Below are positions 3,061 through 57,446 of a DNA stretch of 64,000 nt, one piece after another. Made by a program: the position numbers and the translations under genes. The notes under the pieces were generated by a model that was not told where the DNA came from, searched no databases, and saw only the letters and a list, made by a program, of their open reading frames with translations. Position 1 is the first letter of the stretch; every line of letters starts with the position of its first letter. Location of the stretch: NCBI GenBank assembly GCA_027262695.1, contig GCA_027262695.1_4722.1; one strand, 5' to 3'. The DNA comes from a phage.

Positions 3061-4518
3061 GAGTCCCTGGAGGTACGGGCTCGGAATGCAAACCGTTTCT
3101 ACGAACGATGCTTTTTGTTTCCAATCAGGGTATTCCCATGCGATATATCGTTCGTCAGTAATCGGTTCCCAATTACTATCAAGTTCTGTCTTGGGAGAAG
3201 CGTTAACGGTTGTACGCGCATAACAGGTTAACGGAATGACTGACTGCATGCCCGATACCGGATAACGTGTTACCATCGCAGCCAGGTTGTTCCAGTATTT
3301 ATATCCTGCGATATAGATAAGCTCAGTATAAGTAATGGGGTGAACATCCGCACCAGGTTTGTTAAGCATCTCTGGCGGTATTTCACTCATACCGCGGAAA
3401 AGTCGGAATGAATCGTTGTTTACATAAACCAAACAGAGATAACGACCATTCACCATGATAGGTTCGTTACGTACGCCTGGATCGCTTAGCGTGTTCAATA
3501 AACGTTCGATACCATCCCAAGTAGTAAAGTCATCGATGGTGTCAGGATCAAGTACGACTCGTTCACGTTCCATCGTTTCGGTATCGATAAGCTCAACCTC
3601 GGTAACATCACGGACGAAGATCTCTTGCAAAATACCAGTACGTAATGCGTGTTGCGTTATCGGAAGGGCTGCTTTGCTCATCTGGTATAGACCAAGCTGT
3701 ACAGATGTACATGACGTTTGGTTTGGAGAACCGAGAACCTCCGTTGTGGGGTTAATTGCCGAAATAACGTTACGGGTTGAGTTCCAAACACGACGTGAAC
3801 CGAACTTACCTTGGAAGATCCCTTTCTTACCCTGGAACATATCCAACAGCAATGCGTAGATATCATTGAAGGTTCTTTGCAGGCTCCAGCGCTGTCCGTC
3901 GTAGACAGGATCGTTGTAGTCCTTTAATCCATCGGGAACGGTATTGGAGATAGCAAGGAAACGACGGTAGAGCTCCGTGATTTCTTGTTCGCTTTCATAC
4001 CCGCCTTCCTTTACTTCTATTTCACGAAGACCAGCAGGTAACACCAATAAATGACGGGTCATCGCTTTGAACATGTTTTCTTCGACAACTTTAATACGCA
4101 GTTCTCGTTGCGCTGAACCTGTTGAAACGAACTTGATCTCCGCAACGTGTTGTGCGAAGAAACCGTAGCCGGTTTGTCCCGTTAATGCGTCAGCAGCAAC
4201 GAAATCACGCTGTTCTGGATCCCATCGTGCATAAGCTTTACCGGACATGATATCGCCATAAAGGTGTTTCAATCGAATAAGGCGATCGTAAATGACCGGA
4301 TGCAAGATTTCCACTTTACACTCGATGACCGCAAAGCGGCGATCACGATCTTCACTACCCGCACTCCCAAAGATGGTGTATGAATAAAAACCATCATCAT
4401 GGAAATTACCCGTACTCGGGTCACGGATACTCATGCTGGTAATCTTAGGAAGGAAACGCAACTGCTGCTTATCAAGATGCAGTATACTGATATTGAACGG
4501 CTCTCTGACTTTAGCCAT
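2956..4518 (-). CDS. hypothetical protein, putative 5' exon of intron-interrupted gene (last ~30-45 codons before the stop at 2956 are probably intron read-through)
   Basis: ORF track 2956..4551; start moved to ATG 4518 (MAKVREPF) preceded by AAGGAG with 7-nt spacer. ORF continues through the intron P element into a stop. Confidence 0.55.
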   Translation of the reverse strand: MAKVREPFNISILHLDKQQLRFLPKITSMSIRDPSTGNFHDDGFYSYTIFGSAGSEDRDRRFAVIECKVEILHPVIYDRLIRLKHLYGDIMSGKAYARWDPEQRDFVAADALTGQTGYGFFAQHVAEIKFVSTGSAQRELRIKVVEENMFKAMTRHLLVLPAGLREIEVKEGGYESEQEITELYRRFLAISNTVPDGLKDYNDPVYDGQRWSLQRTFNDIYALLLDMFQGKKGIFQGKFGSRRVWNSTRNVISAINPTTEVLGSPNQTSCTSVQLGLYQMSKAALPITQHALRTGILQEIFVRDVTEVELIDTETMERERVVLDPDTIDDFTTWDGIERLLNTLSDPGVRNEPIMVNGRYLCLVYVNNDSFRLFRGMSEIPPEMLNKPGADVHPITYTELIYIAGYKYWNNLAAMVTRYPVSGMQSVIPLTCYARTTVNASPKTELDSNWEPITDERYIAWEYPDWKQKASFVETVCIPSPYLQGLGGDKSLKNKDFFQGKLSGIPERECLKNLRIAGNP

Positions 4519-4691
4519 GGATGCACTCCTTAAATAAGGCGGCGGTATCATCTGAACACATGAGAGACGTAATGGGTGAAGCCATCACCCATCGCTTCCC
4601 TGCTTGATGCGAGGAAGGTATTAAATTACGTACCTGTCCGATGGCCTCGAACAGGCGATGTATGAAGCTATGCTTCAATTTGGAGGTATAC

Positions 4692-11373: not shown

Positions 11374-11395
11374 GGGGTGGGGAATCCCCACCCCC
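11374..11395 (+). terminator. GC-rich hairpin between the two large plus-strand genes
   Basis: GGGGTGGGGA-atc-CCCACCCC stem-loop immediately after stop of 4692..11363. Confidence 0.4.
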
Positions 11396-11412
11396 TTCTT
11401 GAGGAATGGTAC

Positions 11413-13554
11413 ATGGGTATTCTTGTTCAAAACGCCCTCATCACAAAACAAGCCTTTTTATTACCCGGTGACAGCAGCACGCTTAGTGCTGACATGATTA
11501 AAGCGAGACATACACCCTATTCCTACGATAACGTCGATGATACAACACTGGGTGGTAACTGGGTACTTAACCCGCCACCGCAATATACGAAATTTGCTGA
11601 TATCAAAGAACGACGACGTGCGGTTATGCCTGGATCAACGGGCATGGGTCGAGGCTATAGTGAAAGCATCAACAGCTTTAAAGAAGTTGTTACCTTACGA
11701 TTCGGTAAACCGCGCTTTACCGGCGCAGCTATCTTCTTTACTGACTTCTACGACGCGGATGTTGCGGTTACCGTGAAAACCGGTCGCGATCCCGGTATTC
11801 TTTATTACGCCGCCAAAGCGTATACCACCGTGCTTTCTTACCTCACACCGTTACCCTATATCTACATGCTGGGTCGTATCGGTCGATACTTCATGGGCAA
11901 ACCGACCAGCCAGTATTATTATCAAGTACCGACCATGCACGTTTATTGGTCTTCGTTCCAGACGTTGGTCAACCAAGCAGCAATAAACATGGGTATTGTT
12001 GCAGGGATGGGTAAGGACAAAGGGTACGTTGAGGAAGGCGGTACTGTACTCCACCAATTCTCGATTGGTGGTCAGGATGTTGAAGAATTCATCAACTACG
12101 CTTCTAAAACGCTCCCAGGCATTTACAAGAAAGGCGGTGGGATCGATATCTATCAAATTGCAACACGTCGTCAGCGTATACAGAACGCATGGGTTCGACG
12201 TATTCAATCCATGATGGAAAACGATTACGCGTCTTACGAGGAATTCTGGAACGATCTTGATAAACGACTTGATAGCGGCGCGTTTCCATCGGACGTTACC
12301 GGTCGTACGCTAACACAATACCTTGCTGATACACAGAAGTCTGCTGTTTACAGTGCAGCAGCAGGTGATAACAAACAGACGATGGACGACCTGTTATTCG
12401 GAAGGGCTTCCTACAGCAACAAAGATGCTGATGCTAACTTCAATGTCTCTGCTGCCACCTCCGACGGCGGTACGTCAACACATAGTCAAGGTACGACAGC
12501 CAACGTCGGTAATTCAACATCAGGGACCACACAGGCTTCAACTACAGCATCAACGGCTGGAGGTGCGAACGTACAGAGCAAAGGCATCGGGCAAACGAAT
12601 GCGGCTGAAGAAGCGACGTTCCTTGATCTGATGGATGCTGAACTGGCCGATGGTGCTCAGTTTATCAGTTTTCGAGTCGATTCCGTAACCAGTGTAACCG
12701 AAACATTCTCAAACAGTGCATCGGAAAGTTCAATCGCTCAGACGATGAACAGCAAAGCGCAAGCGAACATCGAACGGCGCTTTACGTTGTCAGGTGGTCA
12801 AACCGGTTGGGGTACGCTGGACGCGGCGATAAAGGGTGTGTCGGATACCATCAACGGTGCTATTTCAGGAATGGGTTTGGATGGTATCTTTGGTGCCTTC
12901 ATGGGTTCTGGCTTCGCAGACATTCCAAAGTTCTATTCTGGGTCATCGGTAAGCCTTCCACGTGCAGATCTGACAATGGAATTACGTTCCTGGAGTGGAG
13001 ATCGTTGGTCGATCTTTACGAACCTCATGGTACCGCTTTTAGCGATCCTTGCAGGCGGTTTACCGCAGTCTACCGGTAAATCGTCTTACGGGATGCCATT
13101 CATGTGCGAGTGTTATATTCCTGGTAAGGTCCAGATTAAAATGGGTCTTATTGATAATATCACAGTTACACGCCATGTCGGGAACGTGCCGTCAACACGT
13201 GAACGCTTACCGTTAGGTATTGATGTCAGTTTCAGTGTGTATGACCTGTCGTCGATCGTTGCAATGCCGATCACCACCACAGCAGCATCATTAGCAAAAT
13301 TGGATCCTCGTGGCTTCTTAAGTGATCTTCTTGCTGATGATACGCCGCTGAACAACTATCTTGCTGTGTTATCGGCGTTGACGCTTACCGAACAGGTTTA
13401 CATGGTCCCGGATTTAAGTCGTCGTATGCATAAGACCATGGCTGATATCGATAGTTTCTGGAGCAAAGGTAATTTTGCTAACTGGTTATCGGACACCATG
13501 CCTGGCAGGATAGCATCAGGGCTGTTATGGAAACGTACCGAACGACCGTTCTGA
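11413..13554 (+). CDS. hypothetical virion protein (follows giant protein; Thr/Ser-rich central linker)
   Basis: ORF track 11377..13554; start moved to ATG 11413 (GAGGAA upstream). 713 aa. No recognised catalytic motif. Confidence 0.55.
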   Translation: MGILVQNALITKQAFLLPGDSSTLSADMIKARHTPYSYDNVDDTTLGGNWVLNPPPQYTKFADIKERRRAVMPGSTGMGRGYSESINSFKEVVTLRFGKPRFTGAAIFFTDFYDADVAVTVKTGRDPGILYYAAKAYTTVLSYLTPLPYIYMLGRIGRYFMGKPTSQYYYQVPTMHVYWSSFQTLVNQAAINMGIVAGMGKDKGYVEEGGTVLHQFSIGGQDVEEFINYASKTLPGIYKKGGGIDIYQIATRRQRIQNAWVRRIQSMMENDYASYEEFWNDLDKRLDSGAFPSDVTGRTLTQYLADTQKSAVYSAAAGDNKQTMDDLLFGRASYSNKDADANFNVSAATSDGGTSTHSQGTTANVGNSTSGTTQASTTASTAGGANVQSKGIGQTNAAEEATFLDLMDAELADGAQFISFRVDSVTSVTETFSNSASESSIAQTMNSKAQANIERRFTLSGGQTGWGTLDAAIKGVSDTINGAISGMGLDGIFGAFMGSGFADIPKFYSGSSVSLPRADLTMELRSWSGDRWSIFTNLMVPLLAILAGGLPQSTGKSSYGMPFMCECYIPGKVQIKMGLIDNITVTRHVGNVPSTRERLPLGIDVSFSVYDLSSIVAMPITTTAASLAKLDPRGFLSDLLADDTPLNNYLAVLSALTLTEQVYMVPDLSRRMHKTMADIDSFWSKGNFANWLSDTMPGRIASGLLWKRTERPF

Positions 13555-44584: not shown

Positions 44585-45478
44585 TTAATCGGAAGTGTTA
44601 TAACCGAATACTGCTTTACCGTAGGTGTGAGTACCATCACTGAGTGACAATACTAATACGTGGTTATACGCATCGTTAACACCCTTGTCGGTAGAATCGG
44701 TGGTAACACCGTTGTAGACAAAGGTAGCTGATTGCAGATTGGTTTTCAGTTCATTGATGATATCATCACTTACACCAGTCTGCTCTTTAATCAGAGTAGT
44801 CAGGTTACCTGCTAAGCTTGCGTCGAGATTTACTTCGTTGCCAGTAATAGCTTGTAAACCTGAAGCGTAAGTACTGAAGTCTAACGGATAGGTTAACAGA
44901 CGTGCTGACGTTTTGGTACCATTGCCTTCATCAACGTAGGTTAAGTTACCCAGGTTGGTAACCTTGATAATGTTAGACAGATCCAGCGTTGTGTTATAAA
45001 CTTTAACTTGAACAGAACCATACCAAGCCAACGAATCTTCTTTGGCTTCCAGGGTAACGGTTTGGATACCTGACTGATCAAAGGTAACGGGATTAGATAA
45101 CGTTTCAGCTTTGATGTCTTTTGTTTTATCCAGGAACTTCTCGCCGGAAGGCGTAACCATACCGTAGCGTTGAGCTACGAGGTCGACCACGTCACCGATG
45201 GTGGTGTTTGCTTCAACACTAACGCGCACCGCGATCTTCTGGAACCATTTAGCCAGATCCAGACGATGATAGGTGACATCGCGGGTATTGAAGTACGGTG
45301 TACCATCACCCGGACTGAGTGTTAATGTTGCTGCACTATCAGAATCGCTTTTGGATTTAAGAACGTATTTGAGATCAGTGTATTTGAAACTGGCTCCCGT
45401 ATCGGCGTTAAGCTGGTTGATCTCATCAACGATAAGTTGCCACGGTGTTTTCAAAGTAAGTGATACTCGACTTGACAT
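44585..45478 (-). CDS. structural-region paralog family member A (YYDR-YG-LAWTGSV family)
   Basis: VTYHRLDL, LVAQRYGMV, LAWYGSVQV. Confidence 0.55.
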   Translation of the reverse strand: MSSRVSLTLKTPWQLIVDEINQLNADTGASFKYTDLKYVLKSKSDSDSAATLTLSPGDGTPYFNTRDVTYHRLDLAKWFQKIAVRVSVEANTTIGDVVDLVAQRYGMVTPSGEKFLDKTKDIKAETLSNPVTFDQSGIQTVTLEAKEDSLAWYGSVQVKVYNTTLDLSNIIKVTNLGNLTYVDEGNGTKTSARLLTYPLDFSTYASGLQAITGNEVNLDASLAGNLTTLIKEQTGVSDDIINELKTNLQSATFVYNGVTTDSTDKGVNDAYNHVLVLSLSDGTHTYGKAVFGYNTSD

Positions 45479-45620: not shown

Positions 45621-46163
45621 ATGGCCTTAGACTTTAACAAAGCAGCGAAATCCCTTCTGCTCGATCTTATCAACACCAAAGCAACTCGCACACTGACCGA
45701 AGAAGAACTGCAGTTCGGTACTCCGGGGGCATCTTCCGAACATTCTAAGAACACCGTTATTCAGCTGGATGCTGCGGATGAAGCAGAAAACCTGCAGGGT
45801 ACTCAGCAGTTCTACTACGATCGTCTGGCTCTATCTGACGTTTTCGCTGATGTAACCGGCGATGTTACTTTCGAACTGCCGCACGGTACTGAAAGCATCC
45901 AGGCTTCCGAGCTGGTAAGCAAGCTGGTCACCAAATTCGGCCTGGCTTCCCTGACCGGTGAAATCAAAGAAGAAACCTTCCAGCTGTCTGCAGGTACTGT
46001 TGGTCAGGTAACTCTGAGCGCGATCGAGAACGGTCTGGTATATACCGGCACTCTGCAGGTTGCTCTGACCTATGCAGCAGCACCGAAAGACGAACTGGCA
46101 ACCGTTCTGGCGAATAACGTAGCTGAAGGTTTCGTGAAACCTGAAGTAGCTGTCGTTGGCTAA
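45621..46163 (+). CDS. paralog family member B; strongly codon-optimised, probably very abundant virion protein
   Basis: FYYDRLAL, LVTKFGLA, LVYTGTLQV; near-exclusive CTG/GGT/CGT/ACC/TTC codon use unlike neighbours. Confidence 0.65.
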   Translation: MALDFNKAAKSLLLDLINTKATRTLTEEELQFGTPGASSEHSKNTVIQLDAADEAENLQGTQQFYYDRLALSDVFADVTGDVTFELPHGTESIQASELVSKLVTKFGLASLTGEIKEETFQLSAGTVGQVTLSAIENGLVYTGTLQVALTYAAAPKDELATVLANNVAEGFVKPEVAVVG

Positions 46164-46457: not shown

Positions 46458-47093
46458 TTATTCAGCACTGAAACCGTTCAAACGGATAGCTTCGTAACGT
46501 TTACGTTCACGACGTTTACGCGCCTGCCAACCGTAAATGAACTTCTCGTCTTTCTCACGACGTTCAGCTAATTCGATGTAATACATGCTCTGCATATCCA
46601 GCATCGCGTCGATAAGGTAATCTTTACCTTGCTCGCCACGTTTTGCGATATAAGCGTCCAACGCACCTAAGGTTTTAGGTCCCATCCCACCATCAGCGTC
46701 AATATCTTTCCAGTAAGTTTGACGGTTGTTCATGACGTTGAGGTAACGCTGGAGGTTCTTAACGGCAACGGATTTGCCTGCATTGATACCCAGATCAAAG
46801 AGACGGTCAGCTAAGAACACGGAACGCTTCATGACGTCATCAAGCTTCATCTTATCCCAGAAGTGGGTTTTGTAGATGAAGAACGCCATGTCGTAGGTCA
46901 GATTGCGCATATTACCATTCCAACCGAATTTCGTTTTCAGCGTGGTTTTGTATTGATCGGCGAGCGCTTTCGTAATTCCCATCATGGTTTCATTACCGCT
47001 GTCATCTGGGTCGTTGACGTATCCCGCCTCGATGTTGGTTTTATCACGAATGATGAATTCGCAGGTAAAATCTTTTTCAGTAATCTTGGTCAT
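46458..47093 (-). CDS. endolysin, GH108-like muramidase with PG_binding_3-like C-terminal domain
   Basis: EAGYVNDPDDSGNETMMGIT matches the GH108 motif (EGGYVNDP.D.GG.T.GIT); DADGGMGPKTLGAL matches the peptidoglycan-binding motif. Confidence 0.8.
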   Translation of the reverse strand: MTKITEKDFTCEFIIRDKTNIEAGYVNDPDDSGNETMMGITKALADQYKTTLKTKFGWNGNMRNLTYDMAFFIYKTHFWDKMKLDDVMKRSVFLADRLFDLGINAGKSVAVKNLQRYLNVMNNRQTYWKDIDADGGMGPKTLGALDAYIAKRGEQGKDYLIDAMLDMQSMYYIELAERREKDEKFIYGWQARKRRERKRYEAIRLNGFSAE

Positions 47094-47219: not shown

Positions 47220-49268
47220 TTAAATACCCTTGGTTCCTTTCACGCGGTGCGCAATTTCTTCAACCATTGCACGCAAGGCACGAAGCTGTTGGTCGTGTTC
47301 GTACCAACCGCCTAACAGAACCCCGCTATACACCATGGTGTCCAGACTTAACAGTCCTTTATCTGATACGTTGATCATTTCAGGGAACTGTTCTTGTACA
47401 CGTTGTGCGATAACACCGATCTTCTCAACATCAGGATCGTAGTCGTGACGGAAACGGGCAAGCCCGGTGTATGCCATTTCACGTAAACGATCACTGAAAG
47501 ATTCTGGATGGTCTTTCAGATAACGGATGTCGTGTTTACTACGCTCATCTGAACGGATGTATGCGTTAGGAACATCGATGTTGCTGTTGAAGTACAACGC
47601 GCTACCACCACCTGCAGAGTTACCCCAATAGAAGCTAGTAAGAATGCTACCGCCATTACCTGTAACATGCACGGTGCTTCCCACCCTCGTTCCACCGCTA
47701 CCATCAACGAAGACCAGTTTGTTTCCGCTGTAAGAACCCCAGAACAGACGACTATCGATGATGTTGGTTGCGGCGAGGCGGGCGTTACGTGGTGTAGAAT
47801 AGACGGTGTTGATATCTTGCTGCGCCTGTGCGTCAGAAGCGATACCGTAGTTCTGCACATTACCTAAACCTACTTGGGCTTTTGTAACAGCGTGAGGGTT
47901 GTCTCGACGGTTAGCGTGATTGTTAACCAGATCGCCCGCCAATTTCTGAATTGCCCAGTTGGTAGACTGTGGCGTCATGTAACGGTTAGTTGCAGAACCA
48001 CCTTGCGCCTCAGCTTGGTTAGCGGTTGGGTAGTTCTCAACGCTTCCTAACCCTACTTGTGCCTTAGACACTTGGTGCGGGTTATTCTTGTCGGCAATAT
48101 GTGCATTAAGCGGAACTAACGCGAAGGTCTCGATGGACGCTTTGGTTGTGTTCGGTGCCATTAATCGGTTAGCTGCAACCCCAGCACGTGCTTCATCCTC
48201 CGAAGCCATCGGATAGTCTTGCACATTACCTAATCCTACCTGCGCTTTGGTCACCTTGTGCGGGTTGTTGTAATCGGTTTTATGTGCGTTAAGCGGAATC
48301 AATGCGAATTGTTCAATCGCTGCAACGGTACGTAGCGGCGTCATGAATCGGTTATTCGCTGTTCCGTCCTTCGCCTCGCTATCCGAAGCGGTCGGGAAGT
48401 TATCAACGTTCCCAAGGTTAACCTGTGCTTTGGTAACGCTATGTGGGTTATCTTTACGATTAGCGTGAGCGTCGACTAGATCCCCACCCAGTTTAGCAAT
48501 CGCCCATCCAACCGTTTGTGCGGTCATGTATCGGTCAGGTGCTGTACCGGCTTCTGCCTCCGCCTTGTTTGCGGTAGGATAGTTCTGTACATTACCTAAA
48601 CCTACTTGGGCTTTTGTGGTTTCGTGCGGGTTATCGGTACGGTTAGCATGCGCGTAATGCAGATCGGTAAGGTCTTTATCCGCCGCTTGCATGTCTTTAC
48701 GTAGCTGATCGATTGCCGCCCAGAGACGGTTATCGGACGCAGCATCACCGATAAGTATTGCGGCTTTCAGCGAATAGATCGCTAAGCAAAGATGTTCGGT
48801 ACCGTAGATAGCACTAACATGGTGGATGTGTGGTTCAGGCGGATAAAGTTCCGGTTTGTTCTTGATGTCGTCCCAGTTGATCGGACGATCGTCAAGTTTG
48901 AGTTCTTCGATAGCCTGATATAACGCGTCAATAAGACTTACGTAAACACCACCGATGATACGATAGTCGTTAATTAACGTCCCCTCGATATCATCGTTGA
49001 TGATGGCGATCGCCGCACAGATTTCTTTACCTGCGTAAAGCGTCGCATCCTGATACAAGAAGATGGGTTTATAATCCACGCCTCGTACCAGTGTCTTACC
49101 GGTAAGCTTTTCAGTGATGACCAGACTTTCGGTAAAGAACGGTCCGCCATCAAGGGCGTAACATTTATTCTCGGTTCGTGGAACGGTATGCTCTTCACCA
49201 ACGATGTGGTTGCTGGCGAGTGTACCGGTCCAGTCCTCGGGGTACTTCAGGGTAATTGGTGTCGACAT
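47220..49268 (-). CDS. tail fibre protein with five NPH..TKAQVGLGNV repeats and C-terminal S74-type intramolecular chaperone domain
   Basis: Repeats about 47846-48656; C-terminal SDERSKHDIRYL...GVIAQRVQE (about 47220-47590) matches the autoproteolytic chaperone motif of endosialidase/T5 pb1-type fibres. Confidence 0.75.
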   Translation of the reverse strand: MSTPITLKYPEDWTGTLASNHIVGEEHTVPRTENKCYALDGGPFFTESLVITEKLTGKTLVRGVDYKPIFLYQDATLYAGKEICAAIAIINDDIEGTLINDYRIIGGVYVSLIDALYQAIEELKLDDRPINWDDIKNKPELYPPEPHIHHVSAIYGTEHLCLAIYSLKAAILIGDAASDNRLWAAIDQLRKDMQAADKDLTDLHYAHANRTDNPHETTKAQVGLGNVQNYPTANKAEAEAGTAPDRYMTAQTVGWAIAKLGGDLVDAHANRKDNPHSVTKAQVNLGNVDNFPTASDSEAKDGTANNRFMTPLRTVAAIEQFALIPLNAHKTDYNNPHKVTKAQVGLGNVQDYPMASEDEARAGVAANRLMAPNTTKASIETFALVPLNAHIADKNNPHQVSKAQVGLGSVENYPTANQAEAQGGSATNRYMTPQSTNWAIQKLAGDLVNNHANRRDNPHAVTKAQVGLGNVQNYGIASDAQAQQDINTVYSTPRNARLAATNIIDSRLFWGSYSGNKLVFVDGSGGTRVGSTVHVTGNGGSILTSFYWGNSAGGGSALYFNSNIDVPNAYIRSDERSKHDIRYLKDHPESFSDRLREMAYTGLARFRHDYDPDVEKIGVIAQRVQEQFPEMINVSDKGLLSLDTMVYSGVLLGGWYEHDQQLRALRAMVEEIAHRVKGTKGI

Positions 49269-49281
49269 AACCTGGAGGTCC

Positions 49282-51879
49282 TTATAACGTGACTGTACCT
49301 AATTTGGTTGTCTTATTGAGATTAATGACAGAGATCTGGGTATCGCTGGTCGTAATCGTTCCGATATTAACGCGCTGTCCTTTATCATCTTCTTGCTTGT
49401 AGATGGTTAACTCCAGTTCTAACTGGTCGCCATTAGGAACAACGGAAACGTACCATGTTTTATTACCTGGTGAACTATTATAGTCTTTTAGGTTATAATG
49501 GCCTTTAGGTAAGGTCATGGCCTTACCGGCAAACAAACATGAAATGTCCTCGTTGATATAAACGTCGAAACCGGAAGAAGCGATGACTGTTGAGGCCATT
49601 ATTCGAGACGCGACGATACCACGATTATAGTCGTCGATTGTGGTACCTATGACATTGAATACTTGCCCCCCGTTACCCATAATGGTCGATTCGCTAGTGT
49701 TTACGTAGCCGATACCCCAAGTCGGATGAATGTTCCAGCGGTACCCACTGTTTTGTAAATATGTATACATGTCCTCATAGGCCGCATTCACCCAACTACC
49801 ATCACTTTTTCGTCCAGCCCTAAATTGGAATGTGTTGCTATTTCCAGATGTCCCTCGGCCAAGCGGGACATGTCCCGCTACTAACCAACCATCCGTACTT
49901 TGCATATATGCGAACGAACCGTACGCTCTGTTATCAGCCCAAATATTCACGGTATCAACACGCTCAACGTAGGCGATTACCTTTTGTACGCCAGTTATAG
50001 CGATTGAACCCTTGCGTGCCGACAAATTAACTTCTGCGATTACAACACCCATTTTACGCTGGCTGCCACTAAACCCCAATACAACCATTAAACACGGTGC
50101 GTTTGTTGCTTCAGGAGGGATTGTTATCGATTGTTTCCAGTCGGTGATTCCGTTGAGTTTTGTTCCAGTGTATGCGTTCCAGACGGTTTGTCCAGCCGAT
50201 TTCAGATTCTGTTCAGAAATAGAAATGCTATCGCCCTCAGGGATTAACGTGTCGTAATTAAGACCGATGTTACTGGATAGACGATTGTCATTTAAGTAAG
50301 ATCCACTGAGTGTGACGTTATTGTTACGATATATTGTCAAGAATGGCGCAGCCAGAGCGTCTAATACCGTAAAGTTACTTGATGGCATGAAACCATAGAC
50401 ATCGATACCATTACCGTGGTAATGGTAGTTTGTCCAACTACCTTGATAACTTACGGTACGCCCATCGTAGTGACCTTGTTCACCGCCACTGCTAGACAAC
50501 GTGTATATCTTGGTTGCTGATAGAAATGCGAGATACCCATGAGCCGCCAAAGCTCCAACAACCCTGTCTTTTATCTTTAACCAATCTGAAGTATATAACG
50601 TACTGTCGGGATTCATTTTGGCTATTTCATCGTAAGCTGTGCCTGCGAAGTTTCCGATAGTGTACGTACGTATATCCGGCTGTCCGTTATTGTCGTTCTG
50701 TACAGCAATTACTTGCCCAGAATCATTGATATCGATATTACCGATACAGTTGTGAGGCCCCCACACCCAATATCCATCTTTATAATTGGATTCTCCTTGT
50801 GTGAATGTTGATGGTCCTCGCCACGCGATGCCGTTCGATTCGGCGTAGTAGGTCGCTTGCCCCGATCCGGGATTCATGGCGTATTTGTTATTGGTTGGGT
50901 CAAAATCGATGTAAAAATGATGCATTCCTTGACGTTGATGATTGTTCTGATCATTTGTCCACCACGATGAACCGACCAGAATTCGCGCTTTACCATTTTT
51001 TACAGTGGACCATAAACGTATTGCAGCGCGCCAGATGATTTGACCGATCCCGTTAGACGGGAAACTATTCGCACTTATACGGTTACAGACTATGAGTTCG
51101 CTGCTATTGTTTACTTGAGTCCCTTCAATTGTGACACCGTTTATGTTAGTGATCAGTGTTGCCGATACACTACCCCCTGTAGGGGCGATAGAGGAACGTT
51201 GAACGGTGTAAATTTTTAGTGATAATTTATAGCCGTCCCTAACAGCAATCCCAATGTAAATAGTCCCGTTAATTTCCCAACAACAAACATCGGGCATCGT
51301 TTCTTTGAAATCGGATAAAGCACCATCGATATACATTGCAACGTGTTTACTGGCATCGAATGTACCATCCGTTAACGCGATGAACATTTTGGCGTTATTA
51401 CCGTTGATATCAGCCGCTAATCCGAGTAGTATGTTGTTCTGATGACAGTAGATGGCTTTAGGTGCTAGATCCAACATAGCCGGTTGGTACTGTCGGCTTG
51501 TCGGTATTACGCTAGTAACTGCACCATTTTGATCCGTTTTACAAATAACGTAATATACGCCATGTATGATGCTGTTTGTCGCCGACCTTAGTAGGACAAT
51601 CGTCCCGTCAGATTCACGACATATACCGTAATGACGATAGTCGGTGATTAAGCCGATAGCACCATCAGCAGAGCCTTCAATTGCCAGAGGAAAATAACTT
51701 TGGTCCCCAACCTGTTCGATATCGGTTGCGCCAATATCGATGTATTTTTCCATCTCAGTGTTGAACTCAGCGGTACTGTAGGCACCGAGATCGCTCGCCT
51801 TTAGTCCCGTTGGGTTGTCGCGACTGGCGATACGCGTAGTAACGCTACTCACCAGTTCGCTGAACTTTTTCATTGCCAT
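49282..51879 (-). CDS. large tail fibre / receptor-binding protein candidate
   Basis: 865-aa ORF immediately upstream of and co-oriented with the fibre genes; no repeats or catalytic motif recognised. Confidence 0.45.
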   Translation of the reverse strand: MAMKKFSELVSSVTTRIASRDNPTGLKASDLGAYSTAEFNTEMEKYIDIGATDIEQVGDQSYFPLAIEGSADGAIGLITDYRHYGICRESDGTIVLLRSATNSIIHGVYYVICKTDQNGAVTSVIPTSRQYQPAMLDLAPKAIYCHQNNILLGLAADINGNNAKMFIALTDGTFDASKHVAMYIDGALSDFKETMPDVCCWEINGTIYIGIAVRDGYKLSLKIYTVQRSSIAPTGGSVSATLITNINGVTIEGTQVNNSSELIVCNRISANSFPSNGIGQIIWRAAIRLWSTVKNGKARILVGSSWWTNDQNNHQRQGMHHFYIDFDPTNNKYAMNPGSGQATYYAESNGIAWRGPSTFTQGESNYKDGYWVWGPHNCIGNIDINDSGQVIAVQNDNNGQPDIRTYTIGNFAGTAYDEIAKMNPDSTLYTSDWLKIKDRVVGALAAHGYLAFLSATKIYTLSSSGGEQGHYDGRTVSYQGSWTNYHYHGNGIDVYGFMPSSNFTVLDALAAPFLTIYRNNNVTLSGSYLNDNRLSSNIGLNYDTLIPEGDSISISEQNLKSAGQTVWNAYTGTKLNGITDWKQSITIPPEATNAPCLMVVLGFSGSQRKMGVVIAEVNLSARKGSIAITGVQKVIAYVERVDTVNIWADNRAYGSFAYMQSTDGWLVAGHVPLGRGTSGNSNTFQFRAGRKSDGSWVNAAYEDMYTYLQNSGYRWNIHPTWGIGYVNTSESTIMGNGGQVFNVIGTTIDDYNRGIVASRIMASTVIASSGFDVYINEDISCLFAGKAMTLPKGHYNLKDYNSSPGNKTWYVSVVPNGDQLELELTIYKQEDDKGQRVNIGTITTSDTQISVINLNKTTKLGTVTL

Positions 51880-51891
51880 TATTCACCTCGA

Positions 51892-52377
51892 TTAAATAGG
51901 CGAGTCGGGTAGCTGACCATCATCGATCTCGATGGTGGCCACCTTACGTGTTGCAGCAAGATGTGATGTACCCTGGATTTTGTTCCAGGTGCCGATACGC
52001 ATGGCGTTTTTGTAGCTGCTATCGCTATCGTTCAGCGTGTAAACAAAACCGCTATCGGTTACGGCAAGATAGATCCAGCCTACAGACTCACTGATGCCTG
52101 ACACGTCCAAAGTTGCTGCTGGCACCGTCCCTACCACCGTGTTGTATTCCGCTGTACCTTGACCAATGCTGATCCGTCCGTTGCTGTAACTGGCTGCTGG
52201 AAGCGTTTTATTTCGACTGAAGAAAAGAAACGGAAGGTAACGCTGGGTAACAAGCGGTGCAAGTTTAGGAGCCACTTCGGTCTTAACGTAGACATCTGTT
52301 TGTGCTGGCGTTACCTCGTGAGGGTTCTTTTGGGTAAGATACGTCCCCCATTCAGAAAGCAGTGTTGATAGCTTCAT
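51892..52377 (-). CDS. small fibre-associated protein with N-terminal NPH-type motif
   Basis: KNPHEVTPAQTDVY near N-terminus; paralog of 52382..52897. Confidence 0.5.
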   Translation of the reverse strand: MKLSTLLSEWGTYLTQKNPHEVTPAQTDVYVKTEVAPKLAPLVTQRYLPFLFFSRNKTLPAASYSNGRISIGQGTAEYNTVVGTVPAATLDVSGISESVGWIYLAVTDSGFVYTLNDSDSSYKNAMRIGTWNKIQGTSHLAATRKVATIEIDDGQLPDSPI

Positions 52378-52381
52378 GCGG

Positions 52382-52897
52382 TTACCCCATGTAACGTTTT
52401 TGGCCGAGGATGAAGACTTTGTTAAATACCACCGAAGTGATTCCTGTTGCGTTACAGCTCACCTGCCCGACGCGAATTGCTGTTGACGTATCGACCCCAG
52501 CACTACTCTGCCAGATCCAATCGATCGATCCGTCTTTCTGACGAATGAAAAGATAACCGGTTTTGTTCGCCCAGTCGGAAGTAAGTTTTTTGATGTCTAG
52601 CGTTCCCTTCGCCAGAATATAGTCGGTACCGGCGATCATGACGGGTATTTCAGGATACGAGATTACCGTACCGCTGGCAGTAACGTTGCTGATGCGTTCG
52701 CTACGAATATCGGTACAGTCACCGAAATACGCTACGGGGAGTATCCCCTTAGGGAGCTTTTTGCCGATTCTCGTATCGATCGTGTTTTTATCGGGTGCGT
52801 CGATTTGCGCTGCGGTGACTTGGTTAGGGTTATCCTTCCTTGCGTACCATGTCGTCATGCGAGCACCCAATTCACTCATTTTTGTGCCCATTTTCAC
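52382..52897 (-). CDS. small fibre-associated protein with N-terminal NPN-type motif
   Basis: KDNPNQVTAAQIDAP near N-terminus; paralog of 51892..52377. Confidence 0.5.
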   Translation of the reverse strand: MKMGTKMSELGARMTTWYARKDNPNQVTAAQIDAPDKNTIDTRIGKKLPKGILPVAYFGDCTDIRSERISNVTASGTVISYPEIPVMIAGTDYILAKGTLDIKKLTSDWANKTGYLFIRQKDGSIDWIWQSSAGVDTSTAIRVGQVSCNATGITSVVFNKVFILGQKRYMG

Positions 52898-52936
52898 ATC
52901 CTATCGAAAAATAAAAAGAAGGAAAGGTGGGTAGAA

Positions 52937-52954
52937 CCCACCCATCCGTTATAA
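52937..52954 (-). terminator. hairpin GGTGGGT-aga-ACCCACC followed by T-rich run on minus strand
   Basis: Overlaps stop of fibre gene 52949..55102; TTCCTTTCCTTCTTTTTATTTTT follows on transcribed strand. Confidence 0.55.
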
Positions 52955-55102
52955 CGTTTCGAAGTCGGTTGCTTTGATAACCGCGTTGAAGTTGGCAAGG
53001 AATTCCTTAAGCAACGCTTGGAAGACATCACGGAACGCCGTGTTCGTCTTCAAACTGGTTAAATAATCGTTCTTAAGGTAATCGCTCAGCTTACCGATCT
53101 TCTGCATCTTCTCGCCGTCTTCGTTCTCTCCAGGTTCTTGGCTGTTGATGTTAACCCATTTGATCCCTTCGAGATCGCCATCGGCAAGGAAGTTAGCGGG
53201 CGTCTCATCGTCGTTCAGGATTTTAATTGTGTCGCTGGATTCAATGCCACCGTAAGCTTCCAGAAGCTGGTTGACTGTTAGCGTGTTGGTGTTGATTGAA
53301 CCATTGACACCATCAATACCGATGCCTGCACCTGTGATGGATGTCGCCGAAAGATCGATCGGCCCGGTTAACTTACCACCGTTGATCGGTAACGCACCAA
53401 CTTGCTCTGCGGTGTGTGTGTGGTTGGCTAACGCCGCAAACGCCGCGATAGACTTATATGTCGAATACGGCGTCATGTACGCTGATTGGTTGGTGTTGTC
53501 AGCGGCTTCAGTATCGGTAGCGACATTAAAGTTCTGCACGTTGCTGAGACCGACCTGCGCCTTCGTTACTTCATGCGGGTTGCTCTTATCGACAACGTGT
53601 GCTGCAAAACCGTCACCGGCTAAAGCGGTGATTGCTGCTTTTGTCGCAGCCGGTGTCATATAGCGGTTGGTTGCTTCACCTGCCTGTGCTTCCGCATCAG
53701 AAGCAACAGGATAGTTCTCAACGCTCCCCAAACCGACCTGAGATTTTGTTACTTGGTGTGGGTTTTCGGTATTCGCGATATGGCTACTGAATCCTTGACC
53801 AGCCAGTTGCTCGATTGCGTAACGAACAAGTATTGGCGTCATGTACTTGTTGTTAACCTGACCATCGATGGCTTCTTGGGTGGTGGCAACCCCGAAGTTT
53901 TGCACGCTCCCCAACCCAACTTGCGCTTTCGTAACAGCGTGGGGGTTATTGGTGTTACCGATGTGATCGGTAACCGTTGGGGTGATTAATCCTGCGATAG
54001 CGGCTGCCGTGGTCGCAGGGGTCATGTATTTATCGTTAGCAACACCCGCAGCAGCTTCTACGTTAGATGCTACACCGTAGTTCAATACATTTCCTAACCC
54101 AACCTGCGCCTTGGTTACCCCGTGGGGGTTGTTCTTGTCTCCGGTATGGGTTGTCAACGTAGCGTTAACGTTATCGATACGCGTGCTTAAGCTATCAGTG
54201 ATTGCTTTGATTGCGGCTCGTACACCCGCTGGTGTTGTGTACAGATCTGTGGCCGTACCGGTAATGGTTGTATTACTATCGGCTACACCGTAGTTCTCAA
54301 CGTTTCCGAGTCCCACCTGGGCTTTCGTTACCTTGTGTGGGTTGTTGTAGTTGCTGATGTGCGCAGCAGCACTATCACCACTCAGGTTAGCGATCATCTT
54401 ACGCGTCATCGCCAACGTCATGTACAGATTTTCACCGATGGTTTCCAGATCGCTCTCGGTCGCCGTTGTGAAGTTCTGCACATTCCCCAATCCAACTTGA
54501 GCCTTGGTTACCCCATGGGGATTATCGCGACGATTCTCGTGCTGCAGCAATGCGGTCATTGCTTTATTGAACCCTTCTTCAAGCGGTTCTTTCAATGATT
54601 CGATTGCAGCCACCACATCGTCCCACGTCATTGTGTCGGTTTCGACATTATGCTGGTGGTTGATTGGCGGGAATACGGAAGGAACGTCGGCAACCTTTTC
54701 CCAGAACGTAACGCGGGGATCGTAAAGGTTGTTGGCTAAAACGTTAAGAATTTGTTGTTGATCAAGTGTAAACTCACCCCCCAGTGAATAGTAGTTCAGT
54801 TGCAACTGTCCACTGAATGCGGTGTCCAACAGCATGATGGAACCGTATAATTCCAGGCCGGTCAGCGCAGCCATGGCACGGAAGGGGTGAGTGCATAAAA
54901 AGTCAACGCCTTCTTCCAGATACGCGTTTGTTTCCGGGTTGTAGATCTTTAATCCATTACGAAAATATGGCGCGTATTTAGGAACGAGAAAGTTAAATCC
55001 GGTCCCCGTGGAAGGACGGACAGTGACGAGTTCTTCTGGAACCCATGCGCCATCCAAATTCCCCTGCGGGTTATACGGAAGGCGTTTAATTTCATCTGTC
55101 AT
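52949..55102 (-). CDS. tail fibre protein with six NPH..TKAQVGLGNV repeats
   Basis: Repeats about 53530-54541, e.g. NRRDNPHGVTKAQVGLGNVQNF, NNPHKVTKAQVGLGNVENY. Confidence 0.7.
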   Translation of the reverse strand: MTDEIKRLPYNPQGNLDGAWVPEELVTVRPSTGTGFNFLVPKYAPYFRNGLKIYNPETNAYLEEGVDFLCTHPFRAMAALTGLELYGSIMLLDTAFSGQLQLNYYSLGGEFTLDQQQILNVLANNLYDPRVTFWEKVADVPSVFPPINHQHNVETDTMTWDDVVAAIESLKEPLEEGFNKAMTALLQHENRRDNPHGVTKAQVGLGNVQNFTTATESDLETIGENLYMTLAMTRKMIANLSGDSAAAHISNYNNPHKVTKAQVGLGNVENYGVADSNTTITGTATDLYTTPAGVRAAIKAITDSLSTRIDNVNATLTTHTGDKNNPHGVTKAQVGLGNVLNYGVASNVEAAAGVANDKYMTPATTAAAIAGLITPTVTDHIGNTNNPHAVTKAQVGLGSVQNFGVATTQEAIDGQVNNKYMTPILVRYAIEQLAGQGFSSHIANTENPHQVTKSQVGLGSVENYPVASDAEAQAGEATNRYMTPAATKAAITALAGDGFAAHVVDKSNPHEVTKAQVGLSNVQNFNVATDTEAADNTNQSAYMTPYSTYKSIAAFAALANHTHTAEQVGALPINGGKLTGPIDLSATSITGAGIGIDGVNGSINTNTLTVNQLLEAYGGIESSDTIKILNDDETPANFLADGDLEGIKWVNINSQEPGENEDGEKMQKIGKLSDYLKNDYLTSLKTNTAFRDVFQALLKEFLANFNAVIKATDFETL

Positions 55103-55133: not shown

Positions 55134-55152
55134 GGGATACCCTGGGGTATCC
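55134..55152. promoter_or_regulatory. hairpin GGGATACC-ctg-GGTATCC in divergent promoter region
   Basis: Between minus start 55102 and plus start 55207. Confidence 0.3.
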
Positions 55153-55206: not shown

Positions 55207-56484
55207 ATGTATACATTGGTAAAAACTTACGGATTACCCGTAGGTTCCGGCACGGCCTGGACAGCACTTGAAGCGGGTGAAAGCGTCCTGAGCACGTTGT
55301 TCGCAACGTATCAAAAACTCAATATCCAGGTCCATGAAAGTTATACTGACCAGCAGCAGGTTATCGATCTTTATACGTTTCAATCCGAGCTTCAAAACAG
55401 CAGCGATACGCTTAATGCTTGGCTGAAGGCGAAGTCGGATGCCCACACCAACCTTCGTGGTCAACCGGGTGAACTCTCGATTAAAGCCCACAAGCTCTAT
55501 TGTCACGACGTTATCACGGTAGGCTTTCTTCCTAAAGTCGGTAATAGTGGATATCATCCAAGCAACGCGATTCCTGAATCGGAACGTACCGATATTCTCC
55601 TAACAAAAGCGAACACGAATTACGAGAACATCGGCAAGCACTGCTTGTTCACGGTAGGGGGTTACGTACACCCTCACGTTTACGGTAAGGATGTTGGTGT
55701 TTATATCCAGGGTGGATTCAAGACAGCCCAACGCAGCCAGGAAAACGATATCGGGATGATCGATTTCAGCTGTATCGGAAGTTTGGAGATTCATGCGATC
55801 ACAGAAGACATGATTGCGGATTCCACGAAGCTTTTACCGTACAAAGATGAGATGTATCTGCGCTTACCCCGTAAAGTCGCGGAAGATGAAACGGTCGCAT
55901 TAGTGTTCGGAGGTTACTTACATCTCCTCGATGACTGTTACACGATCGTTAGTGATACGACAGCAAAAATAAACTGCATTAACATGTTCTTGTACGAAAG
56001 GTATTTTCGTTCTCGTGAATATCTTGACTTAACCTCCCTCGGTATTCTCTTGGACGAAGAAAACCCACAATCGGATATTGTTGCGAACCGTTTGCTGTCC
56101 GATAAAGCCTTGAAAGCTTGGGTGACCCATCCATGCAGCTTTTGGGTTTATATCAAAGCAACCTCGATTCAAGTTACGCAAGAACCGCTACCGCGCAGTG
56201 GTGTGCCAGGACAGTATTTCTTAGGCAAGAAACCGGAAGGATTAATTCGCGCGGATCTTGGAGAACTACCTGCGTACGTACAGACTTACGAGAAACCACT
56301 GTGGGTACTTCATTCACGATGGGGACTTCGTAAGAACATGCTGTTTGAAAACACGTTATACAAACACACACGTGTTAAACGCCTCAATGATACACCGTAT
56401 CTCCATCAGGTATGGTTGGAAACGCATGCGACGTTACAAACCGTACACAAGCTGGAACTGATCGATTCCAGTCAGAAAAAATAA
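55207..56484 (+). CDS. hypothetical protein (structural region)
   Basis: 425-aa ORF. Confidence 0.55.
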   Translation: MYTLVKTYGLPVGSGTAWTALEAGESVLSTLFATYQKLNIQVHESYTDQQQVIDLYTFQSELQNSSDTLNAWLKAKSDAHTNLRGQPGELSIKAHKLYCHDVITVGFLPKVGNSGYHPSNAIPESERTDILLTKANTNYENIGKHCLFTVGGYVHPHVYGKDVGVYIQGGFKTAQRSQENDIGMIDFSCIGSLEIHAITEDMIADSTKLLPYKDEMYLRLPRKVAEDETVALVFGGYLHLLDDCYTIVSDTTAKINCINMFLYERYFRSREYLDLTSLGILLDEENPQSDIVANRLLSDKALKAWVTHPCSFWVYIKATSIQVTQEPLPRSGVPGQYFLGKKPEGLIRADLGELPAYVQTYEKPLWVLHSRWGLRKNMLFENTLYKHTRVKRLNDTPYLHQVWLETHATLQTVHKLELIDSSQKK

Positions 56485-56540: not shown

Positions 56541-57446
56541 TCAGGCTACGTATAACGTTAGATAACCTTCAATGAGGGTGTTCATTACACTGAGTTGGAG
56601 AACGACAGCTTTACTAACATCCGTACGCACCCCGAACGGTAGCGTTTTGAAGTGCTCTGGATCCGTAATAACTTTCGCGTTTTGTAGGTTAAGCGATCCT
56701 GGTATCGCTGACAATACCCAACGATCGTTAACCGTCAGACCAACGATCTCTTCAGAAAGTCCTAACTTCAGAGTGTTCATTTCTGCAATCAGGGCTTCTG
56801 AATGCGCATCGCCCGATGTTAACGTGTAACCATCGGTTAACGCCGTCAACACCGCATCCGATACGAACCAGTTGTACGATACGATCGCACCTGGTAGCTT
56901 ATCGCTATCCCGATCGATGATGTAGTTAAGACCAGCTAACATGTTGTTACGGATGAGGTTGTTCAGGTCGTTATGACCTGATGTCAACTCAACAAGCAGT
57001 TGACCGACCCAGACTTGGTTACCGGGTTTCGGTGTTATTACAACCTGTATCGGCTGTCGGGATTTGTCCAGATCAGCATCAACGATTTCGGTTTTATTCA
57101 GCAGGATACCGTACGTTGAGGCTAAGACAGGCAATACCTCAGAAACCTTGGTCAGTGTATCTAAGGTTTCGATTTCTATCGGCCAACGATGTTGCCCACC
57201 AGACCAAATACCGAGTTTGCTAAGATCGATACGGTTGTAATAGATGTCGACGGAGTTCACGAGCCCGGAACCCGGTTGTGGGTGCACGGTCAACATACTG
57301 TTGCGTTTGTATCCCGTGCTTTCAGAAGCCTCACCGATAACCAGCTTATCCAGCGTCACACCCCGAGCATCGAAATCGCTATGTTTTCGAATCAGTCGGA
57401 AGAGAATTTCCTTTGATTCTAGCCCCAGGATTTCACTGTACTCCAT
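56541..57446 (-). CDS. structural-region paralog family member C
   Basis: DIYYNRIDL, LASTYGILL, QVWVGQLLV. Confidence 0.55.
   Translation of the reverse strand: MEYSEILGLESKEILFRLIRKHSDFDARGVTLDKLVIGEASESTGYKRNSMLTVHPQPGSGLVNSVDIYYNRIDLSKLGIWSGGQHRWPIEIETLDTLTKVSEVLPVLASTYGILLNKTEIVDADLDKSRQPIQVVITPKPGNQVWVGQLLVELTSGHNDLNNLIRNNMLAGLNYIIDRDSDKLPGAIVSYNWFVSDAVLTALTDGYTLTSGDAHSEALIAEMNTLKLGLSEEIVGLTVNDRWVLSAIPGSLNLQNAKVITDPEHFKTLPFGVRTDVSKAVVLQLSVMNTLIEGYLTLYVA

Follow-up and report, generated by a model that had tools for sequence, protein, structure and literature searches.

Introduction

The virion atlas of phage phiKZ describes twelve outer-baseplate fibres, each under one gp130, with a fibre base of six N-terminal domains (N-domains) resembling that of gp131, which were proposed to come from three copies of gp131 plus gp133, gp134 and gp135, together with a six-helix bundle (PMC13250141). 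The distal part of the fibre was not resolved in that work, in which the host-binding end was suggested to be the propeller of gp131, and the fibres were considered functionally analogous to the short tail fibres of T4 (PMC13250141). Because they lack transposon insertions, phiKZ gp131 to gp135 are each regarded as essential. A second relevant phage is Escherichia phage vB_EcoM_Goslar (Goslar), a nucleus-forming jumbo phage of E. coli and a chimallivirus, whose gp025 and gp029 are labelled 'tail fiber' in a recent preprint (Basu et al. 2026, bioRxiv 10.64898/2026.04.21.720040); the portion of its text available here contains no discussion of gp026 to gp028, their common modules or S74 processing. 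Here we analyse a fibre locus at positions 47,220 to 55,102 of a 64,000-nucleotide stretch of phage DNA (GenBank assembly GCA_027262695.1, contig GCA_027262695.1_4722.1), referred to below as the window. This locus, a syntenic homologue of phiKZ gp130–gp135, probably encodes the fibres with which the peripheral baseplate of a Goslar-like chimallivirus recognises its host.

Results

A Goslar-type counterpart of the phiKZ fibre genes

A preliminary description of the window, made from the sequence alone, had listed five fibre-related genes, all of which were recovered by open reading frame (ORF) calling on the minus strand: a 682-aa fibre protein (F1, 47220..49268), proteins of 865, 161 and 171 aa (B865, 49282..51879; S161, 51892..52377; S171, 52382..52897) and a 717-aa fibre protein (F2, 52949..55102). 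Divergent from these, on the plus strand, lies the gene of a 425-aa protein (55207..56484). The order of the six genes matches that of Goslar gp025–gp030, which are annotated in NC_048170 as hypothetical or virion structural proteins, with S74 noted on gp025. The window derives from a phage closely related to Goslar: the region is 92.6% identical to it at the nucleotide level over 82% of its length, the gap corresponding to the centre of B865. Identity to the Goslar orthologues reaches 95% for F1 (gp025), 98.5% for F2 (gp029), 98.8% for S161 (gp027), 97.7% for S171 (gp028) and 97.4% for the 425-aa protein (gp030). The loci compared were those of Goslar (L001), a 236-kb contig of a further assembly (L002; GCA_014829495.1, VNCB01000001.1), L003, a 101-kb Logan contig from a more distant Goslar-like phage (L004; SRR33371455) and a phiKZ-type genome (L005), in which the 771-aa and 427-aa proteins were verified as PHIKZ131 (4gbf) and PHIKZ130.

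Kinship with phiKZ is clearest at the 425-aa protein, which aligns over aa 1-338 with PHIKZ130 (9xqd_L; phmmer E 2.4e-26), matches phiKZ-type gp130 and Erwinia phage RAY gp16 by BLASTP (E 7e-28 and 3e-28, respectively) and belongs to phrog_3337. This gp130 homologue adjoins gp131-family genes in the window, as it does in RAY. F2 matches PHIKZ131-type gp131 (BLASTP E 6.5e-43), and F1 matches phiKZ-type gp135 (E 2.5e-30), gp131 (E 3.7e-28) and gp134/gp133 (down to E 2.3e-19); both fibres also match phrog_2163 (E 1e-137 for F2 and 2e-144 for F1). Each of the two starts with a gp131-type N-domain. The preliminary description had already noted that their N-terminal domains are related, and the isolated N-domains retain 24% identity over 110 aa (BLASTP E 1e-10). 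The N-domain is absent from B865, S161 and S171, which begin instead at a helix followed by a shortened repeat element.

Two NPH-repeat fibres

F2 comprises the gp131-like N-domain (aa 1-125; 54728..55102), an HxH linker, a helix, six NPH units (aa 184-556; 53435..54553) and a transition half-unit (ANHTHTAEQVGALPINGGKLTG) leading into a C-terminal body of ~140 aa (together aa 557-717; 52949..53434). F1 shares the N-domain and helix, which are followed by five NPH units (aa 203-498; 47775..48662), a Gly-rich distal tip (aa 499-572; 47553..47774) and a predicted Peptidase_S74 intramolecular chaperone (aa 573-682; 47220..47552). The counts of five and six repeats given in the preliminary description are thus correct: the NPH triplets occur at aa 213, 274, 335, 396 and 457 of F1 and at aa 194, 254, 325, 386, 447 and 508 of F2, with a period of 61 aa (183 nt) interrupted by one spacing of 71 aa and one of 60 aa. 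The unit follows the consensus H-x5-NPH-x-VTKAQVGLGNVxNY-x2-A-x3-EA-x2-G-x4-YMTP-x2-T-x-AAI. A strict motif, NPH.[VT][TS]K[AS]QV.L, has 11 occurrences when the window is translated in all six frames and none in 200 residue shuffles, and a relaxed form occurs exactly 14 times in the 64 kb, namely in the 11 fibre units and at the N-termini of B865, S161 and S171. The repeats had also been described as near-identical at the DNA level, which they are not. The units share 26-67% identity as protein and 36-66% (mean 51%) as DNA, the longest exact DNA match is 29 nt within F1 (units 1 and 5) and 14 nt between F1 and F2, and Tandem Repeats Finder detected no DNA array in the fibre genes.

Proteins with this repeat form a large family (at least 1676 database proteins, many on contigs of 200-315 kb) with varied C-termini, including S74, Invasin_D3, Big_1 and GP38, and Felix-O1-like fibres and those of SPbeta also contain the repeat by itself. 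The NPH unit, F2, B865 and S171 are not covered by any Pfam or NCBIfam model, and PDB sequence searches returned no solved structure with an NPH repeat; matches to ribosomal L18e (E 0.007) were rejected as chance similarity to the segment 'aqVgLGnvEnY'. A full-text literature search for the NPH motif, YomR and related terms returned irrelevant papers only. In the AlphaFold2 (AF2) monomer model of F2, the N-domain is beta-rich with a predicted local distance difference test score (pLDDT) of 77-92, and in each NPH unit an extended segment (NPH..GLGNV) is followed by a short helix and then by one of ~20 residues. Model confidence is low for aa 557-634, and F2 lacks an S74 module. Fold searches with this model are marginal because it represents a single elongated chain with a predicted template modelling score (pTM) of 0.28: the PDB matches (Foldseek E ~1e-4, with TM-scores that carry no meaning) were a 526-residue chain of the T4 baseplate (5iv5), a re-refined structure of the T4 short tail fibre (5lye) and a Klebsiella KP1 baseplate fibre. 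The first of these is presumably gp12, judging by its length, the protein not being named in the match output. The F2 N-domain is identical in Goslar and 72% identical in L004, and its C-terminal body is 98%, 91% and 36% identical in Goslar, L002 and L004, respectively.

Several histidines are conserved in the fibres. Two histidines of each unit, at position -6 and in the NPH triplet itself, are invariant in a 52-sequence family alignment, and an HxH motif follows the N-domain (PPEPHIHH at aa 141-151 of F1 and PPINHQH at aa 143-151 of F2) within a sequence common to both proteins, W..(V/I)...P..(F/Y)PP..H.H. HxH motifs in T4 gp12 and gp37 bind metal ions, and the fibre histidines could by analogy line a trimer axis and coordinate metal.

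The suggestion that F1 ends in an S74 chaperone module is borne out by a match to PF13884, which scores 26.3 bits where the family threshold is 22 (E 9.3e-6). The match spans aa 573-631 of F1 and takes in positions 1-56 of the 58 in the profile. Endosialidase-type chaperones carry a catalytic dyad of Ser with Lys five residues downstream, and the corresponding F1 residues, S573-D-E-R-S-K578, align with SDRRIK of the S16 gp37 chaperone (6f45). Cleavage is predicted at S573. Among the peptides listed for purified Goslar virions, five of the six tested that precede S573 in gp025 are present, and neither of the two that follow it (DHPESLSER and AMVEEIAHHVK); this would fit removal of the S74 module, as weak evidence from a small sample. 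The tip that precedes the module weakly resembles that of S16 gp37 (6f45), and is 82% identical in Goslar, 100% in L002 and 14% in L004. The L004 counterpart of F1 (644 aa) terminates in another small domain without an S74 module, which marks the tip and its chaperone as a cassette that can be exchanged. The L004 locus (2821-10595) has the order F2-F1-S171-S161-B865, with both fibre genes adjacent.

Three paralogues without an N-domain

The preliminary description proposed that S161 and S171 are paralogues, each starting with a single NPH or NPN element, and the proposal is supported by direct comparison (BLASTP E 9e-8) and by alignment of S161 with the S171 family (hhalign probability 91%, E 1e-6, 120 columns). 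What it overlooked is that B865 belongs to the same set. B865 was described as free of repeats, which is accurate for tandem repeats; the protein nevertheless starts with a degenerate single NPH element (SRDNPTGLKASDLGAYS) within an N-terminal module (N-module) of ~60 aa. At its other end, aa 726-862 of B865 alleles align with aa 17-165 of S171 (hhalign probability 99.7%, E 5e-27). The N-module of S171 also matches B865 (E 8e-5), that of the B865 family matches S161 (95.8%, E 7e-9), and S171 aligns with positions 888-971 of phrog_3573. The S161 family was found only in Goslar-like phages; its assignment to Lyase_8 was rejected (19 bits against a cut-off of 27), profile comparison pointing instead to kinship with the C-terminal domain of S171 and B865. 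All three proteins thus combine the ~60-aa N-module with a C-terminal beta-domain of ~100-140 aa, diverged in S161, and the profile alignments indicate that S161 and S171 are equivalent to B865 without its ~660-residue middle.

The N-module itself hints at a possible origin of these proteins. The final NPH element of phiKZ gp131, gp133, gp134 and gp135, located just ahead of the distal body, is shortened to NPHxVTAxQ(V/L)xxY(T/S)K..D..(I/L), a 'transition' half-unit that lacks GLGNVxN and the A..EA..G..YMTP half. A half-unit (HTHTAEQVGAL) also follows unit 6 of F2, and the consensus of the family closes in the same manner, with H.....NPH..TA.QVGA. This transition half-unit recurs at the N-terminus of B865 (DNPTGLKASDLGAYSTAEF), S161 (KNPHEVTPAQTDVYVKTEV) and S171 (DNPNQVTAAQIDAPDKNTI), each time preceded by a helix of ~15 residues that matches the end-helix of a preceding unit. 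In B865, the N-module (aa 1-65; 51685..51879) consists of helix 2-18, the half-unit, a further helix and an LP..G strand. On these sequence grounds, B865, S161 and S171 are best read as distal bodies that became separate polypeptides while keeping the element that joins shaft to body.

Virion composition in Goslar

Proteomic data for CsCl-purified virions are available for Goslar (Table S4 of Basu et al. 2026), from which the figures in this section are taken. All five orthologues of the fibre locus, gp025–gp029, are virion-associated, among them both small proteins (gp027 and gp028), which mass spectrometry (MS) detected in the purified particles. The central copy estimates are 87 for gp025, 75 for gp029, 18 for gp030, 14 for gp028, 14 for gp027 and 13 for gp026 (Basu et al. 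2026). Hence gp025 and gp029 are about equimolar, and gp026, gp027 and gp028 stand at about 1:1:1 and about six-fold lower, the three paralogues agreeing within ~11% despite a five-fold difference in size. Relative to gp030, gp025 and gp029 reach ratios of 4.8 and 4.2, which are compatible with 3 + 3 chains per site given a label-free quantification (LFQ) error of 0.57-3.7 fold. The error range comes from a calibration against ten baseplate proteins whose copy numbers are known: the ratio of central estimate to true value was 0.57-3.7, and its median about 1.65. The MS data are compatible with a stoichiometry of approximately three F1, three F2 and one each of the three paralogues per gp130-type site, with twelve such sites if Goslar resembles phiKZ. 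Thirty-six copies of each paralogue are unlikely; 18 of each would also fit. A role of S161 and S171 as non-structural assembly chaperones was rejected because both orthologues occur in purified virions, equimolar with gp026.

These numbers bear on how the paralogues associate. We tentatively suggest that B865, S161 and S171 could form a 1:1:1 pseudo-threefold heterotrimer at each fibre site, with their N-modules and C-terminal beta-domains paired. Conventional fibre proteins are homotrimers, and each of the three might instead trimerise with itself; the result would be three separate small appendages, a propeller-bearing one and two short stubs, attached at different sites of the fibres or of the peripheral baseplate. 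We find this doubtful: in the closest characterised system three paralogues (gp133, gp134 and gp135) occur 1:1:1 in a single fibre base; the three genes co-occur, adjacent and in the same order, in five of five Goslar-type loci (the window, Goslar and L002–L004); the estimates of 13-14 copies lie close to the 18 of the gp130 homologue (12 for gp130 in phiKZ), with 36 of each improbable as noted; and the body of B865 is modelled confidently as a self-contained monomer (pTM 0.82).

Variable modules and receptor binding

Only one gene of the locus, that of B865, is hypervariable. Its identity to the Goslar orthologue is 65%, where the neighbouring genes compared have 90-99%, and to that of L002 48%, where the neighbours have 83-98%. 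The divergence is confined to about aa 120-725, a body (aa 121-725; 49705..51519) that lies between conserved ends. Over aa 121-760, identity is 54-57% to Goslar and 34-39% to L002, with 40-70% to Goslar in the centre; the N-module retains 97%, 89% and 54% in Goslar, L002 and L004, and the C-terminal beta-domain (aa 726-865; 49282..49704) 92% in both Goslar and L002. Database alleles form a series of 96, 89, 80, 65, 48 and ~33% identity, again with conserved ends. Alleles P0014, P0021 and P0181 recur across many public read sets, P0014 comprising 326 member sequences, and assemblies that carry the label Salmonella Enteritidis or E. coli include contigs of ~236 kb that represent entire genomes of Goslar-like phages (e.g. 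L002), which indicates phages carried in, or contaminating, those isolates.

An AF2 monomer model of B865, built from an 81-sequence alignment (pLDDT 89.2, pTM 0.82), shows the N-terminal helical module followed by an all-beta body, in which the ~660-aa insert is predicted to form a lectin- or glycosidase-like beta-propeller and further beta-domains. No Pfam, NCBIfam or PDB sequence match and no active site was found for B865, and the structural alignments have 6-10% identity; for these reasons the model defines a fold class, that of sialidase-, GH43- and GH130-type propeller glycosidases and of propeller lectins, and the protein is not callable as an enzyme or as a member of a glycosidase family. 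A match to CPSF7 (E 0.06) was rejected. The earlier proposal of B865 as a receptor-binding candidate gains support from its hypervariability and the modelled propeller, and as the only hypervariable part of the locus its insert is the best candidate for determining host range. Genome-wide screens identified the outer core of lipopolysaccharide (LPS), GluII, as the Goslar receptor, which fits a lectin-like binder.

It might instead be the F1 tip that binds the primary receptor, B865 serving as a structural or enzymatic accessory, for example one that degrades glycans or provides secondary binding, without influence on host range. Receptor binding is a classical role of tips chaperoned by S74 modules, the C-terminal part of F1 is similar to the distal tip of T-even gp37 (phrog_1699, E 2.9e-16; 6f45), the tip is the only part of F1 that has diverged from Goslar (82%) and is replaced in L004, and F1 is about six times as abundant as B865 in the Goslar virion data. 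We nonetheless judge this reading unlikely. B865 diverges far more, and more often, its alleles ranging from 96 to 33% identity between conserved ends; the window and L002 have identical F1 tips and B865 bodies (aa 121-760) of ~36% identity; and a lectin-like propeller suits an LPS-core receptor. The F1 tip and the B865 body assort independently, and because dual specificity is common, the assignments of receptor binding to the F1 tip and to B865 are not mutually exclusive.

Attachment of the paralogues and fate of the repeats

The preliminary description envisaged the small proteins as docking onto the repeat shafts through their single NPH motif, a view that could be extended to B865 and would make all three proteins side branches. 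Each of the three does start with one NPH-type element, all are virion-associated in Goslar, and a fibre pair would offer many potential sites with its 11 units. We consider lateral docking very unlikely, and find no support for it in the N-terminal element, which is the truncated transition half-unit found at the shaft ends of the fused homologues (phiKZ gp131, gp133, gp134 and gp135; RAY gp18 and gp19). The corresponding bodies of RAY and phiKZ belong to the same covalent chain, following its last NPH unit, and are therefore co-axial extensions rather than side branches; a half-unit that links shaft to distal body likewise points to end-on or co-axial co-assembly. The abundance of the paralogues, about one sixth of that of the fibre chains rather than a multiple of it, is a further point against lateral attachment. 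Least credible of all is the notion, also taken from the preliminary description, that recombination between stretches of NPH-coding DNA reshuffles the fibre modules and thereby switches host range: despite eleven in-frame 183-nt copies in two genes 4 kb apart and the 29-nt match within F1, the units have diverged in sequence (36-66% DNA identity, at most 14 nt shared between genes, no tandem array), the window, Goslar, L002 and L003 do not differ in the number of units or in gene length, and the mosaic boundaries observed between related phages lie outside the repeats, at the conserved ends of B865 and at the F1 tip.

Expression signals and neighbouring genes

S171 as called here begins at a GTG (52897) that an AGGA motif abuts; because the same motif lies 7 nt upstream of an ATG at 52891, translation probably starts at the latter, giving 169 aa, the length annotated in Goslar. 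In the 51-nt gap between F2 and S171 lies a terminator-like hairpin (52925..52943, minus strand; 8 pairs, 5 of them G-C, with a T-rich tail). It might attenuate read-through into the block of three paralogues. Attenuation there would match the ~6-fold lower abundance of gp026–gp028 relative to gp029 in Goslar virions; it would leave the high abundance of gp025, encoded further downstream, unexplained. The 104-bp divergent intergenic region between F2 and the gp130 homologue contains a perfect palindrome, GGATACCC-TG-GGGTATCC (55135-55152), that is single-copy in the window, with 0 occurrences expected even when 2 mismatches are allowed. It occupies the same place in Goslar, L002 and L003, is absent from L004, the phiKZ-type locus and RAY, and could be an operator or a 5'-UTR hairpin of the fibre operon. 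A sigma-70 promoter scan returned fewer sites than shuffled sequence; chimalliviruses transcribe with their own RNA polymerases, and for both reasons the scan is uninformative.

Directly downstream of F1 lies an endolysin gene (46458-47093, minus strand) with GH108 and PG_binding_3 domains. The Goslar orthologue, gp024, was detected among the proteins of purified virions, where its estimated copy number of ~76 is close to those of the fibres (Basu et al. 2026, bioRxiv 10.64898/2026.04.21.720040), and the enzyme may be a virion-associated lysin beyond its role in lysis, or may co-purify. DUF7941 paralogues occur on both flanks (44585-45478, minus; 45621-46163, plus; 56541-57446, minus; and further ORFs to ~60160). 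Proteins of this family, including gp22 and gp23, have been proposed to form long head-to-tail filaments, a baseplate-anchored 'fibre cloud' (Basu et al. 2026, bioRxiv 10.64898/2026.04.21.720040). Since DUF7941 proteins flank the fibre cluster, the whole neighbourhood constitutes a host-recognition island. Two adjacent large plus-strand ORFs elsewhere in the window (4641-11363, 2240 aa; 11377-13554, 725 aa) gave no Pfam match at E<=0.001.

Discussion

Proposed assembly and implications

The comparisons support the view of the preliminary description that the locus encodes a multi-component fibre apparatus, and suggest how its parts might fit together. By analogy with phiKZ, F1 and F2 trimers would be anchored beneath the gp130 homologue by their N-domains and the helices that follow, plausibly as a 3 + 3 hexamer in place of the three gp131 chains plus gp133, gp134 and gp135. 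The NPH units would build segmented trimeric shafts, and the S74 module would help the F1 tip to fold before cleaving itself off at S573. B865, S161 and S171, as 'split-off' distal bodies, would join the complex through their common N-module, most likely end-on or co-axially and possibly as the 1:1:1 heterotrimer suggested above. The B865 propeller would then bind a surface carbohydrate and set host range together with the F1 tip, the latter acting as a second, independently exchangeable specificity module. Should the heterotrimer be correct, the receptor-binding end of the fibre would have a built-in asymmetry, each trimer carrying a single binding domain, and would be encoded by polypeptides detached from the shaft; the precedent of phiKZ gp133, gp134 and gp135 would extend from the fibre base to the receptor-binding tip. 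We know of no phage fibre for which an asymmetric tip of this kind, a heterotrimer with a single propeller, has been described.

Several points weigh against this account. The virion data all come from Goslar and none from the window phage, and because LFQ copy numbers are rough, the ratio of 3:3:1:1:1 is compatible with them rather than demonstrated by them. MS support for S74 cleavage amounts to two peptides absent from those listed for the Goslar orthologue. The F2 monomer model has low overall confidence, as given above, and the trimeric state of the shafts is presumed. As reported for Goslar, the peripheral baseplate and fibres were not resolved and no fibre structure exists (Basu et al. 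2026), and the phiKZ hexamer that serves as the template consists of AlphaFold3 models fitted into density of 4.4-6 Å (PMC13250141). Finally, the F1 tip also varies, and 'fibre cloud' DUF7941 proteins with carbohydrate-binding domains flank the locus, for which reasons B865 is no more than a candidate for the primary receptor-binding protein.

The fibres and the peripheral baseplate are the parts of the chimallivirus virion that were left unmodelled in the 2026 cryo-EM studies of Goslar and phiKZ, and the present analysis offers assignments for them: the gp130 homologue as docking platform, two NPH fibres as the N-domain-bearing base, one of them with an S74-processed tip, and a set of three paralogues whose large member carries a hypervariable, lectin-like propeller. 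These assignments may aid the interpretation of unresolved density. For phage engineering, the cuts for altering host range are predicted to lie in the conserved flanks of B865, near aa 120 and near aa 725, and at the F1 tip (aa 499-572). A further prediction is that the B865 allelic series (96 to 33% identity) tracks types of LPS core or of other glycans.

Comparison with known systems

The more distant resemblances concern single modules. With T4 gp12 and other HxH fibres, F1 and F2 share the HxH motif, with no common sequence family. The F1 C-terminus resembles Peptidase_S74 chaperones of the endosialidase K1F type, including that of S16 gp37 (6F45), in being a module of ~110 aa that starts with S-D-x-x-x-K and aligns with 6F45 over its full length; it differs in following a short Gly-rich tip on an NPH shaft, not a triple beta-helix spike.

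Among chimalliviruses, Erwinia phage RAY (Agricanvirus) provides fused counterparts in gp16-gp20. There, too, the gp130 homologue (gp16) adjoins fibre paralogues. RAY gp18 consists of an N-domain, a helix, one NPH unit and an S171-like body (E 4e-17), gp19 of an N-domain, an NPH element and a B865-like body, and gp20 of a helix, an NPH-like unit and a B865-like body. In contrast to the window, the RAY modules are fused, one NPH unit takes the place of 5-6, and the RAY proteins gave no S74 match. Goslar gp025–gp030 form the orthologous locus, which differs from that of the window in B865 (65%) and the F1 tip (82%).

With phiKZ, the window shares a gp130 homologue divergent from a run of fibre paralogues (in the phiKZ-type genome, gp130 / gp131, gp132, gp133, gp134, gp135), the homologous gp131-type N-domain with its following helix and NPH units, the truncated half-unit before the distal body, and a beta-propeller as the proposed host-binding end (C-domain of gp131, PDB 4GBF). 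The phiKZ gp132 protein, small, without an N-domain and with one NPH unit, is a further likeness. The two systems differ in how these parts are distributed. In phiKZ, four paralogues bear the N-domain (gp131, gp133, gp134 and gp135), each with two NPH elements, and the propeller is fused to gp131. In the window, by contrast, two proteins bear it, with 5 and 6 full units and one S74 end, and the predicted propeller, which has no sequence match to 4GBF, resides on a separate polypeptide without an N-domain, accompanied by two truncated paralogues. The fibre cluster is therefore a variant of the known phiKZ-type apparatus, neither a new kind of machine nor a new principle; what it adds is the module logic of three paralogues that lack the N-domain and a map of the variable cassettes.

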